The notes: a model not told the origin generated them from the sequence alone. Positions 43,109-46,155 are shown, counted from the first letter of the stretch. The stretch is DNA of 64,000 bases from an uncultured Thermoplasmata archaeon (GCA_963708255.1 CAVPSE010000005.1:94062-158061), one strand, 5' to 3'. A program made the numbers and translations.

Positions 43109-43828
43109 GTGCCGGTGCTTCTCACCAGCGTCGCGGATCTTCCGGTCGGATCCCACTGCCTGGGCCTCCACGCCAGCATCGACGAGTCCGCGGACCACGC
43201 GGTCGAGTTCCTCGCGGGGGCCCCCGAGGGCCAGGCGGCCGCGTACTGGGTCGCCGACAGCGCCTTGCAGAGCTACTACCAAGACAAGCTCTCCCAGTGG
43301 GCCCCCGAGCAGGTAGGGTGCGTTATGGTCCTCGCGGGAGAACAGGTCCACCCGGTCGAGGGGCGACTCAGGCCCGTGGAGGAGGTCAAGGAGTTCGTCT
43401 CCCAACACCCCGAAGGGGTGACGGGGGGAGGAGAGACCCTCAGCCTCTACTGGACGCCCGATACCGTCCCCGACCACCTGGAGTACGAGTCCTGGTTCGA
43501 TCAGCAGCCCCGGGAGAACTCCCGGTTCCTCTGCCCGTACGATCTTCGTCTGGTCCCTGTCCCCGACGCACCGGAGATCCTTCGGGAGCTCGGTCGCCAC
43601 CACTCCCATGTGGTCCTCTCCCCCTCCGCGGAGCCCGCGGTCCGACTGCTGCAGCTGTTCGTCTTCGAGACCGCGACCGACGTTCCGGCCGCTCTGGCGG
43701 AGACCCTCGAGTGGGCGGTAAAGGAGGGGTTCGTCCGGACCGACGGGCCGAAGGGGGAGATGGTGCTCACGTCCGTCGGGAACGATATCGTCGACGCCTG
43801 GGCCGGCGTCACGTCGATCGACTGGTAG
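43109..43828 (+). CDS. MEDS-like sensory domain protein with a possible C-terminal wHTH
   Basis: GSHCLGL, LEYESWFD, FLCPYD, HSHV. Confidence 0.7.
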   Translation: MPVLLTSVADLPVGSHCLGLHASIDESADHAVEFLAGAPEGQAAAYWVADSALQSYYQDKLSQWAPEQVGCVMVLAGEQVHPVEGRLRPVEEVKEFVSQHPEGVTGGGETLSLYWTPDTVPDHLEYESWFDQQPRENSRFLCPYDLRLVPVPDAPEILRELGRHHSHVVLSPSAEPAVRLLQLFVFETATDVPAALAETLEWAVKEGFVRTDGPKGEMVLTSVGNDIVDAWAGVTSIDW

Positions 43829-44107
43829 ATCCCCGGCGCGGTTCCTCCAGGCAGGGGAGAGCGCCGGATCGCAATGACCCGGTCGAGCGGGCGGGACCCG
43901 TGGACCGGGGGGCCGCCCCGGCTCCGCGATCTGACCCAGGTGAACCGGGAGCCGATCCAAGGCGGTGGCGCTCCGGATCATGCCTATCGAGGGAGGCGCA
44001 GGGGAGCCACCGGAACCACTCGGGGGAGGGCGGATCAACTTCACGCGGTGCCGGCCCCGAGAGAGACCTCTGCCGAGGTCAGTGGGTCGGGAAGGGGGCC
44101 CACTGCC

Positions 44108-44224
44108 TCACCTGGAAGGGGGAGGCGGGCAGGTCGGGCAGCACGGATCTCCCACCGAGCAGCACGCGCAGCACTTGCAGCACGCCGAGCAGTCACAGCA
44201 GGCGCAACTCACCGGGAGCGGCAT
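44108..44224 (-). CDS. 38-aa Cys-rich metallothionein-like peptide
   Basis: MPLPVSCACCDCSACCKCCACCSVGDPCCPTCPPPPSR (13 Cys). TTTATT box about 25 nt upstream of the ATG. Confidence 0.7.
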   Translation of the reverse strand: MPLPVSCACCDCSACCKCCACCSVGDPCCPTCPPPPSR

Positions 44225-44264
44225 CGCGGAGAGCATCGGAGCGGGGCCAATAAACCCGATGGCG

Positions 44265-44795
44265 TTACGACGCGGGCGAAAGGGTTCGTCTCCCGACGTT
44301 GACCCTCAGCGACCGTTGGCTACCAGGTCGATACTCGGAACCGACCTGCTCCGCGAGGAGAGATCCGAGCTTCCGGCAGATGGCGTTCGACGGGTGGTTG
44401 TCCACCGCGGGAAATGCGAGAGCGATCCGGCGGGCCGGAAGCTTCGATAGCATGTCCGGGACGAGCCGCATCGCCGCTGTCGCGACCCCGCGCCCCTGCT
44501 GTTCCGGGAGGACGAACCAGCCTACCTCCCACCCCGGTTCCCCCTGCCACTCGCATTCCCAATATCCAACATTGCTGGCGGGGGTCCGGGGATCGCCCAC
44601 CAAAATGGTGAGCTCACATCCAGCACGTGGATCGGCCGACATGGCCAGGAACATCGCGGGGCGTTTCTGGATCCGGTCCTCACTTTCCGGCCCGTTGAGG
44701 TAGATCATCTGGGCGGGGTCGCCGAGGGTCCTATGGACCAGCCAGAGGTCCCCATCCGCGCACGGCCGGACCGAGGCCTCGGCATCCGAGTCCAT
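44265..44795 (-). CDS. RimJ/RimL-like GNAT acetyltransferase
   Basis: WEVGWFVLPEQQGRGVA, AFPAVDNHPSNAICRKLG. Confidence 0.75.
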   Translation of the reverse strand: MDSDAEASVRPCADGDLWLVHRTLGDPAQMIYLNGPESEDRIQKRPAMFLAMSADPRAGCELTILVGDPRTPASNVGYWECEWQGEPGWEVGWFVLPEQQGRGVATAAMRLVPDMLSKLPARRIALAFPAVDNHPSNAICRKLGSLLAEQVGSEYRPGSQRSLRVNVGRRTLSPAS

Positions 44796-45024
44796 GGGTC
44801 CCTTGGACCGACAGGGGCGGATCGTCAAGGCGCACCGCATGCCGAGCAGCCCTCTGGATCTCGAGGGACGATCGCCCACGCGACGACCGCGTCGTAGGCT
44901 CGACGGGATCGACCCCGCGGTAACGTCCCTGTTCCTCTCGACGTCAACGTTTAAGTAGCAATTCCCGAGATGGTCCGCCAGAGCGTATGACGCTCGTCTG
45001 ACAAACGGGAGCGGAGAACGACCA

Positions 45025-46155
45025 ATGAAATCCATCATTCAGGAAGCGATCGCGAAGCACCAAGAGAACCAGTCTTTGACTGAGGAGAAGAAGGCCGCTC
45101 CCGGCTACACAAGCGCCGACGACGCGGAGCTGGCGAAGCTGGCGGAGACGCTGAAGGTCAACATCCGGATCGTCGGATGTGGCGGCGGCGGCTCCAACAC
45201 CATCAACCGGTGCGTGGAGGAAGGGATCCAGGGCGCCGAGATGTGCGCCATCAACACCGACGCGAAGCACCTGCTCACCATCCACGCTCCCCGCAAGATC
45301 CTCATCGGCCGCCGGGCCACGAAGGGCCTCGGCGCCGGCGCCCGCCCCGAGATCGGCGAAGAGGCGGCCCGGGAGAACGAGGAGGAGCTGCGGGCGTTCC
45401 TCAATGGCGCCCACATCGTCTTCATCACCGCGGGGATGGGCGGCGGTACCGGCACCGGCTCCGCGCACCTCGTCGCTCGCCTGGCCAAGGAATGCGGCGC
45501 CCTCACGATGGGCGTCGTCACGCTCCCGTTCGCCGGCGAGGGCGCCGCGCGGATGGAGCAGGCCCGGGACGGCCTGGAGCGCCTCCGCCGGGTCTGTGAC
45601 ACCACCATCGTCATCCAGAACGACAAGCTCCTCGAGCTCGTCCCGAGGATGCCCCTCGACTCCGCCTTCAAGCTCGCGGACGCGTGTTTGATGACGGCGA
45701 TCAAGGGCATCACCGAGATCGTCACGCGCCCGGGCCTCGTGAACCTCGACTACGCCGACATCCTGACCGTCATGAAGGACGGCGGGGTCGCCCTGATCGG
45801 GCTCGGCGAGAGCGAGAGTGCCACCGATCGGGTCACGGAAGCGGTCACCGAAGCCCTCACCTCCCCCCTGCTGGGCAGCGTCGAGCTGACCGGCGCGACC
45901 GGGGCCCTCGTCCGGGTCATCGGCGGACCGACCATGACGGTCTCCGAGGCGGAGAAGGCCGCAGCCCTCGTCGGTGCCAAGATCTCCAAGCGGGCCCGGA
46001 TCATCTGGGGCTGCTCGGTCGAGAACTCGCCGGACATGGAGAACACCATCAAGGTGCTCCTCATCATCACCGGCGTACGGGCCACGAGCCTGCTCGGCCA
46101 GAAGGGAGGCTACGCCGCTGGCGAGTCCGAGGAAGTCATCGACCTCGTCCGCTGA
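45025..46155 (+). CDS. ftsZ: Cell division protein FtsZ
   Basis: GCGGGGSN, AINTD, GMGGGTGTG, VNLDYAD. TTTAAGTA promoter near 44950. Confidence 0.97.
   Translation: MKSIIQEAIAKHQENQSLTEEKKAAPGYTSADDAELAKLAETLKVNIRIVGCGGGGSNTINRCVEEGIQGAEMCAINTDAKHLLTIHAPRKILIGRRATKGLGAGARPEIGEEAARENEEELRAFLNGAHIVFITAGMGGGTGTGSAHLVARLAKECGALTMGVVTLPFAGEGAARMEQARDGLERLRRVCDTTIVIQNDKLLELVPRMPLDSAFKLADACLMTAIKGITEIVTRPGLVNLDYADILTVMKDGGVALIGLGESESATDRVTEAVTEALTSPLLGSVELTGATGALVRVIGGPTMTVSEAEKAAALVGAKISKRARIIWGCSVENSPDMENTIKVLLIITGVRATSLLGQKGGYAAGESEEVIDLVR

Follow-up and report, generated by a model that had tools for sequence, protein, structure and literature searches.

The window examined here, a 64,000-nucleotide stretch of DNA from an uncultured Thermoplasmata archaeon, carries on its minus strand a gene for a very small and unusually cysteine-rich peptide. 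Judging from its homologs, this is a genuine stand-alone gene, in which purifying selection acts on every cysteine and on the spacing between them. As far as sequence comparison reaches, the gene family is real and new, unrelated to known families, and restricted to one family of Thermoplasmata of the Ca. Lutacidiplasmatales type. Eukaryotes and a few groups of bacteria are known to possess metallothioneins; to our knowledge, none has been characterized in Archaea. We think it probable, though far from assured, that the product is a lineage-restricted, metallothionein-like thiolate peptide that buffers or detoxifies soft metal ions in acid-soil Thermoplasmata.

Results

A cysteine-dense open frame and its setting

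The reading frame starts at ATG 44224, ends with a TGA at 44110..44108 and yields the product MPLPVSCACCDCSACCKCCACCSVGDPCCPTCPPPPSR, in which 13 of the 38 residues (34%) are cysteines, five CC doublets occur and phenylalanine, tryptophan, tyrosine and histidine are all missing; 12 of the cysteine codons are TGC and one is TGT. An earlier note on this DNA, made from the sequence alone, had singled out this minus-strand frame for just these features, and the sequence and its translation bear it out, including the count of TGC codons. A second in-frame ATG at 44236 (-) would give an alternative product of 42 residues. The features of the locus are collected in Table 1.

Table 1. Features of the peptide locus, with positions counted along the window.
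Feature	Position	Strand	Basis
Small ORF, 38 codons plus TGA (44108..44110)	44108..44224	-	Sequence and translation; intact homologous ORFs in 12/12 and 31/31 loci
Cys core, 26 codons, CACCDCSACCKCCACCSVGDPCCPTC; 13 Cys and one Ala invariant	44129..44206	-	Alignments A1 and A3; column table
N-terminal segment MPLPVS, short and variable	44207..44224	-	Homologs: 1-33 codons, sequence not conserved
C-terminal tail PPPPSR, Pro-rich and variable	44111..44128	-	Homolog tails of 1-27 residues
TTTATT, candidate archaeal TATA box; predicted promoter	44249..44254	-	Sequence; family-wide AT peak
Upstream GNAT gene, stop TAA 44267..44265	44265..45038	-	Pfam Acetyltransf_3, E 1e-11
Downstream gene, 239 aa, convergent with the peptide gene	43109..43828	+	Weak MEDS sensory-domain match only, E 0.04, below cut-off; NCBIfam none
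Gap between the convergent genes, about 280 nt	43829..44107		

In a six-frame scan of the whole genome (2,245,486 bp; 36,461 open segments, minimum length 26 codons), 13 cysteines within 26 residues were found in this segment only, the runners-up reaching 10, 9 and 8. The peptide ORF is the most cysteine-dense open frame of the 2.2-Mb genome, and its cysteine density is beyond chance. G+C content is 65-73% in the region of the peptide gene and 68.9% genome-wide. The stretch is contained in five sequencing runs, all of them DNA soil metagenomes, from two studies.

The upstream GNAT ORF is 257 residues long as called, with an acetyltransferase domain that begins only at residue 91 and no match among NCBIfam models; its true start may lie farther downstream. 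Rfam (E ≤ 1) and tRNA searches of the peptide locus and the gap gave no match. A potential hairpin just 3' of the peptide stop, picked out by eye, was rejected, being no better than shuffled sequences (44040..44115; z 0.22, not significant).

Conservation and selection

Of 24 further genomes from the genus, 11 gave clear matches in a six-frame search with the peptide as query (E 2e-11 to 9e-5, 60-79% identity); nine weak matches (E 0.03-0.56; L013-L020 and one more) were dropped, as the motif is absent from them. The earlier note had proposed to search among relatives for conserved cysteine spacing accompanied by synonymous change, and such a pattern was found. Two sets of loci were gathered independently of a cysteine motif. 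All 13 cysteines are in register in 12 of the 12 loci found by similarity, where TGC and TGT alternate and TGT accounts for 39 of 156 cysteine codons, and all 13 are retained in 31 of the 31 loci from profile (HMM) searches, two of which differ from the majority only by a Val to Thr exchange after CCACCS. In the 12-locus alignment, codon positions 1, 2 and 3 vary in 11, 10 and 26 of 27 columns, respectively.

A larger set, comprising 56 distinct cores, was gathered by a regular expression for the cysteine motif, and since its loci were selected in this way, the presence of Cys at every Cys column in 56 of 56 sequences is partly a matter of construction. The codons at these columns are free to differ and do so, with 569 TGC and 159 TGT (159 of 728), and the invariant alanine is encoded by GCC 28 times, GCG 17 times, GCT seven times and GCA four times. 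Synonymous sites are saturated across the set (pS 0.725), with a pN of 0.185.

As exchanges between TGC and TGT are silent in one antisense frame too, all six frames of the core were compared. The peptide frame has the lowest pN/pS of the six (0.256), no internal stop in any of the 56 cores and 14 invariant columns out of 26. Next best is the antisense frame that shares its wobble positions, with a pN/pS of 0.414 and in-core stops in six of 56 sequences, and the remaining four frames range from 1.2 to 1.8. Coding on the plus strand, which the earlier note had named as an outcome that would speak against its proposal, is ruled against by this comparison. In all 53 loci with enough flanking sequence, the core is preceded at 1-33 codons by an in-frame ATG, GTG or TTG and followed at 1-27 codons by a stop; conservation is limited to the 78-81-nt core itself.

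Anatomy of the family

The conserved module reads C-[AS]-C-C-x-C-x(2-3)-C-C-x-C-C-A-C-C-[SA]-[VIT]-x3-C-C-x-x-C. Its 13 cysteines, arranged as five vicinal CC pairs and three single residues at fixed spacing, make up half of the core. Within the CCACCSV block the alanine is invariant and the serine and valine nearly so; an arginine or lysine stands between the second and third CC pair in 41 of 56 sequences, and a proline usually follows the last cysteine. Aromatic residues are absent from the core and histidine is confined to a single column (six of 56 sequences), while some of the variable N-termini of homologs contain F, H or W. Among the 55 homologs with delimited ORFs, peptide length ranges from 30 to 68 residues. 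Inspection by eye of the family sequences revealed no hydrophobic stretch fit for a signal peptide or membrane anchor, in agreement with the earlier note, which had seen no signal peptide in the window's product. An AlphaFold2 (AF2) model built from the 56 sequences has a pLDDT of 60 and a pTM of 0.26, with no confident fold or helices; a model of such low confidence is compatible with a metal-dependent fold, and is not evidence for one.

Upstream of the window's gene, the TTTATT element sits 11 nt past the GNAT stop, inside the 28-nt gap that follows this stop codon, and its 3' end lies 25 nt before the A of ATG 44224 (centre at about 27 nt), as the earlier note had pointed out when it compared the spacing to that of leaderless archaeal transcripts. 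Across the family, the upstream AT fraction is highest 41-50 nt before the core (0.45, against a background of 0.33), and in 13 of 53 loci, the window's TTTATT among them, the centre of the best AT-rich 8-mer falls 41-51 nt ahead of it. In those loci the spacing fits a putative TATA box about 27 nt ahead of a leaderless start, an arrangement that is not general in the family. No 8-mer was found in eight or more of 55 loci that could represent a shared operator-like upstream word.

Distribution

Profile (HMM) searches detected the family in 67 of 150 genomes of the genus and in 27 of the 53 high-quality ones; the gene is present in about half of species, as a single copy except in three of the 67 carrier genomes, which have two. 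At the level of the taxonomic family, 34 of 59 genomes are positive, representing 5 of 7 sampled genera. The same profile search matched none of 341 genomes from other families of the class, and none of 391 genomes in a phylum-wide draw outside this family. Three unpublished genomes (G019, G148 and G149) are included in the genus and family counts, and one of them, G019, forms one row of alignments A1 and A2; the conclusions are independent of them.

An IUPAC pattern scan across one genome per prokaryotic species matched at least 119 stretches. Among the matches listed, the full motif occurs in at least 51, of which 50 are assigned to Thermoplasmata archaeon and one to Methanobacteriota archaeon. 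A further 68 of the matches listed, from bacteria and two Haloquadratum, were rejected as off-frame readings of TGC/GCA repeats, runs of CCACCACC. Such trinucleotide repeats (L052-L170 scan) show how easily cysteine-rich pseudo-ORFs arise in GC-rich DNA. In another pattern scan of genome contigs, none of 573 matches was confirmed by tblastn.

Carriers of the gene include AcS1-3, AcS1-45, AcS5-34, AcS5-116, AcS11-62, SubAcS13-64, SubAcS15-25 and SubAcS15-67, all of which are given as Ca. Lutacidiplasmatales in Table 1 of PMC9287336. According to the same source, these archaea come from acidic forest and grassland soils and have genomes of about 2.1 Mb with about 69% G+C; the strings 'cysteine' and 'mercur' do not occur in its main text.

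Comparison with databases

No Pfam family matched the window's peptide at E ≤ 1 or any of 12 family members at E ≤ 10, and at E ≤ 10 the family likewise found no match among the NCBIfam models, RiPP precursor models included, or among all PDB chain sequences. The ESM atlas gave no usable match. No MymT-like similarity appeared in Pfam or NCBIfam, libraries that may lack a MymT model.

Among 1.84 billion representative proteins, a profile search picked out two members, P0002 (52 aa) and P0003 (130 aa, an over-long call), and a word-indexed search of 5.8 billion predicted proteins returned P0002 in the near-length class and P0003 together with P0004 in the longer class; the window's own product is not among these three. 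Because only three predicted proteins among billions hold the module, the family is essentially unannotated. P0004, a 202-aa entry of a public metagenome collection, runs in frame from a VOC/glyoxalase domain into the cysteine module, with the usual Met still present six residues before the core; either it is a genuine fusion or the stop codon separating two adjacent genes has been lost.

Gene neighbourhood

By tblastn, the window's five neighbouring proteins matched none of 11 other peptide loci, and the upstream GNAT gene, missing from all 11, was rejected as a modifying partner. When the 576 ORFs flanking the gene in 56 loci (+/-3 kb) were clustered, no neighbour family recurred in more than four loci. 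A Pfam-supported gene on the same strand follows shortly downstream in about 22 of the 56 loci, and the kinds of gene are heterogeneous. The most frequent immediate neighbour is a glyoxalase-I-like VOC gene, located directly downstream in L038, L132 and L167, with VOC genes also nearby in L081 and L136; an assignment of these proteins to the ArsI/CadI type was rejected, as they have only weak glyoxalase-I-like NCBIfam matches, all below cut-off. In two diverged carriers a MerB-like ORF lies directly downstream (L136:2460-2894(+) and L141:7085-7783(-); Pfam MerB, E about 1e-12). These ORFs score 30-40 bits with NCBIfam against cut-offs of about 200 (40 bits against 193), and no MerA or other mer gene was found within about 3 kb of them. 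A Pyr_redox neighbour in L112 was rejected as MerA, its best match being dihydrolipoyl dehydrogenase (fragment). Other downstream genes encode a SAM methyltransferase (L004/L135 and L118), DnaK, gamma-glutamyltranspeptidase (once), TENA/haem-oxygenase-like proteins (two), DUF1015 proteins (two), an AMP-binding enzyme, an ADP-forming acyl-CoA synthetase and others. We regard the MerB-like, VOC and gamma-glutamyltranspeptidase neighbours, like the VOC domain of P0004, as weak hints that thiols or metals are involved. Across the 56 loci, neither metal-sensing regulators nor efflux pumps nor chaperones are consistently adjacent.

The earlier note had also remarked that no RiPP-modifying enzyme adjoins the peptide gene, which extends to the family: no radical-SAM, YcaO or MNIO enzyme, protease or exporter is linked to it in 56 loci. 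Five peptide-bearing genomes, one of them (G000) 64% complete and the other four at least 96%, were searched for such maturases, with named control genomes responding as they should. A SPASM radical-SAM protein (PF13186) is encoded in one of the five, on another contig, and YcaO (PF02624) and MNIO (PF05114) in none.

A second, unrelated CC mini-ORF was noticed outside the window, at G000:C2:99181-99261(-), equivalent to L171:4182-4262(-). It encodes 27 residues from its ATG, among them 10 cysteines arranged as five CC pairs, and is the second most cysteine-dense frame of the genome. Its TGA overlaps the ATG of a gene resembling LMW-PTP/thioredoxin-type arsenate reductases (E 3e-14, below cut-off), which is followed by a gene for a MIP-family channel, with an HxlR/MarR-type regulator encoded divergently; by its gene content, the locus resembles an arsenic cluster with a CC peptide at its head. 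A search of 60 relatives turned up a single homolog of this mini-ORF (in G156; 64% identity, E 0.025), with no evident ArsC gene downstream. The cluster makes it plausible that CC-rich mini-peptides are tied to metalloid handling in this lineage.

Discussion

A probable metallothionein-like function

The peptide displays those hallmarks of metallothioneins that can be read from a sequence: a mass below 10 kDa, a high cysteine content in CC and CxC arrangements, and few or no aromatic residues or histidines. We picture it as a cytosolic peptide, presumably translated from a leaderless mRNA, which in its reduced state would be little structured and would fold around a polynuclear cluster of soft metal ions. 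Candidate ions are Cu(I), Zn(II)/Cd(II) and perhaps Hg(II)/As(III), ions with a preference for vicinal thiols. The 13 fixed thiolates would carry the function, with ions being buffered or detoxified where low soil pH mobilizes metals. In metallothionein domains, 9-11 cysteines hold three to four divalent ions; by analogy, 13 cysteines could hold some four to five Zn or Cd ions, or a larger number of Cu(I). The occurrence of one copy in about half of species, in changing genomic locations, is what one would expect of an accessory stress gene.

There are also points against a metallothionein, namely the lack of a consistent metal regulator or pump among the neighbours, of a shared operator and of similarity to any metallothionein family; bacterial smtA, for comparison, adjoins smtB. 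The suggestive neighbours, too, are few in number, with scores under the curated cut-offs. The earlier note had suggested a new archaeal metallothionein family. Of this proposal, the conserved gene, the metallothionein-type composition and the lack of a match to known families hold up, and the metal-related role itself is plausible; we consider metallothionein-like function a well-motivated inference from the sequence comparisons.

A more far-reaching version, which we offer as speculation and consider distinctly unlikely in its entirety, would see in the family the first metallothioneins of the Archaea: single-domain thioneins of a (CC)5 type that arose in soil Thermoplasmata of the Ca. Lutacidiplasmatales type, with dithiols specialized for Hg(II)/organomercurials, As(III) and Cu(I), which would be handed over to MerB-like or VOC partners. 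If true, this family and the second CC peptide at the ArsC/MIP cluster would point to unannotated 'CC mini-peptides' as a hidden component of metal and metalloid resistance in archaea.

Alternative explanations

Among other functions, the one that survives best, although we hold it to be unlikely, is that of a thiol-rich redox or cofactor peptide, which would bind a cofactor (Fe-S or another), provide a polythiol buffer, sacrificial or regenerable, or work as a thiol partner or chaperone of glyoxalase-like or MerB-like enzymes. The strict Ala, Ser and Val of the CCACCSV block suggest a defined structure, and such partners are indeed found next to the gene, with VOC genes as the most frequent immediate neighbours (L038, L132, L167) and joined in frame to the cysteine module in P0004, a MerB-like gene following in two loci and a gamma-glutamyltranspeptidase gene in one. 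However, neighbours of these three kinds account for only about seven of the 56 loci. As to an Fe-S cofactor, the CxxCxxC...CP motif of ferredoxins is absent, Pfam Fe-S families do not match, and vicinal CC pairs are generally poor ligands for a single cubane cluster.

Small size, high cysteine density, a variable N-terminal stretch preceding a distinct C-terminal module, and a gene overlooked by gene callers, as many precursors are, would all be expected of a RiPP precursor whose cysteines become thioethers, thiazoles or related groups (ranthipeptide/SCIFF-like, sactipeptide, LAP or MNIO-modified). We nevertheless judge this improbable, given that maturase, protease and exporter genes are linked in none of 56 loci and that of the relevant maturases only SPASM was detected in the five carrier genomes, in one of them and on another contig, with YcaO and MNIO in none. 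Moreover, the would-be leader is unconserved and may be as short as one or two residues, whereas the would-be core is invariant, the reverse of typical RiPPs, and the NCBIfam precursor models do not match.

Runs of cysteine codons in a probably leaderless gene are also what one would look for in a cysteine-sensing translated leader (uORF), in which ribosomes stall at Cys codons to regulate the gene downstream and the peptide itself is irrelevant. There is mycobacterial precedent for this (bioRxiv 10.1101/834739), and about 22 of 56 loci have a Pfam-supported gene on the same strand shortly downstream. In the window, however, the next gene (43109..43828, +) is convergent and separated by a 280-nt gap, and the RNA at 44040..44115 is unremarkable (z 0.22). 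Downstream genes vary from locus to locus and include none for cysteine or sulfur assimilation, and genomes typically carry a single copy, not the several members of a regulon. A stalling tract, furthermore, requires neither exact cysteine spacing nor the invariant Ala and near-invariant Ser and Val, all of which are kept despite saturated synonymous sites. For these reasons we give this explanation very little weight, slightly less than a RiPP precursor.

That the frame is not functional at all, having arisen by chance in GC-rich DNA or merely mirroring a coding or structural RNA element on the plus strand, seems scarcely credible and is largely refuted by sequence comparison. It is true that spurious ORFs are common in high-GC genomes, that the site is overlapped by three ORFs on the plus strand (142-318 codons) and that TGC/TGT swaps are synonymous in one antisense frame as well. 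But this antisense frame has stops in six of 56 cores and a pN/pS of 0.414 against 0.256 (1.2-1.8 in the four others), and the cysteine density is unique within the genome. Conservation, moreover, does not extend beyond the 78-81-nt core, in-frame starts and stops flank this core in all 53 loci, and Rfam and tRNA matches are absent.

Significance

Among the matches listed in a search of the full-text literature, an archaeal metallothionein did not occur, 'archaeal MT' standing for methyltransferase or other proteins. The peptide described here offers a candidate of 38 residues that is easily synthesized, and its strict ligand pattern, together with some 50 natural variants, makes the question of archaeal metallothioneins directly testable. 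The gene is also under strong selection and occurs in about one species in two of an abundant acid-soil lineage of uncultured archaea, yet it is nearly absent from protein databases, an absence that bears on how the small-protein content and the metal ecology of soil archaea are assessed.

Comparison with known systems

The polycysteine sORF attenuators of mycobacteria resemble the peptide gene in being probably leaderless, unannotated and marked by consecutive cysteine codons; those attenuators precede cysteine-metabolism operons, and two to three consecutive Cys codons suffice (bioRxiv 10.1101/834739). The gene described here differs from them in its 13 cysteines at fixed spacing, its conserved non-Cys residues, its unrelated or convergent downstream genes and its single copy. 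The precursors of SCIFF/ranthipeptides and other cysteine-rich RiPPs are likewise short, cysteine-rich ORFs that often go unannotated. SCIFF/ranthipeptide precursors, however, adjoin a radical-SAM/SPASM maturase, whereas here such a maturase is not linked, SPASM is absent from four of the five genomes checked and NCBIfam gives no match.

With the Csp copper-storage proteins the peptide would share the principle of a prokaryotic cytosolic store made of many cysteine thiolates. Csp proteins are four-helix bundles of more than 100 residues, in contrast to the 38 residues of the window's peptide and its lack of confidently predicted helices.

In a passage of a 2025 review (PMC12193353), metallothioneins are given only for a few bacterial groups. 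BmtA/SmtA (Pfam Metallothio_Pro) and MymT are, like our peptide, prokaryotic, small and cysteine-rich, with metal buffering as the presumed common role. The SmtA type combines His and Cys ligands in a zinc-finger-like fold and is encoded next to the gene of its cognate repressor, SmtB; the window's peptide, in contrast to BmtA/SmtA, has no histidine, no regulator nearby and no match to the profile. Similar in overall design are the small, Cys-only Cu/Cd-thioneins of fungi, ciliates and animals, with which the peptide shares its very small size, an overall cysteine content of about one third, CC and CxC arrangements, the absence of aromatic residues and of a predicted autonomous fold, and a stand-alone gene for a presumably cytosolic product. 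Unlike the members of the metallothionein Pfam families, to which its sequence similarity is nil, the window's family is archaeal and, as far as our searches extend, confined to one family of Thermoplasmata, and its CC-x-CC-A-CC segment, in which three doublets are separated by single residues, is unusually dense.
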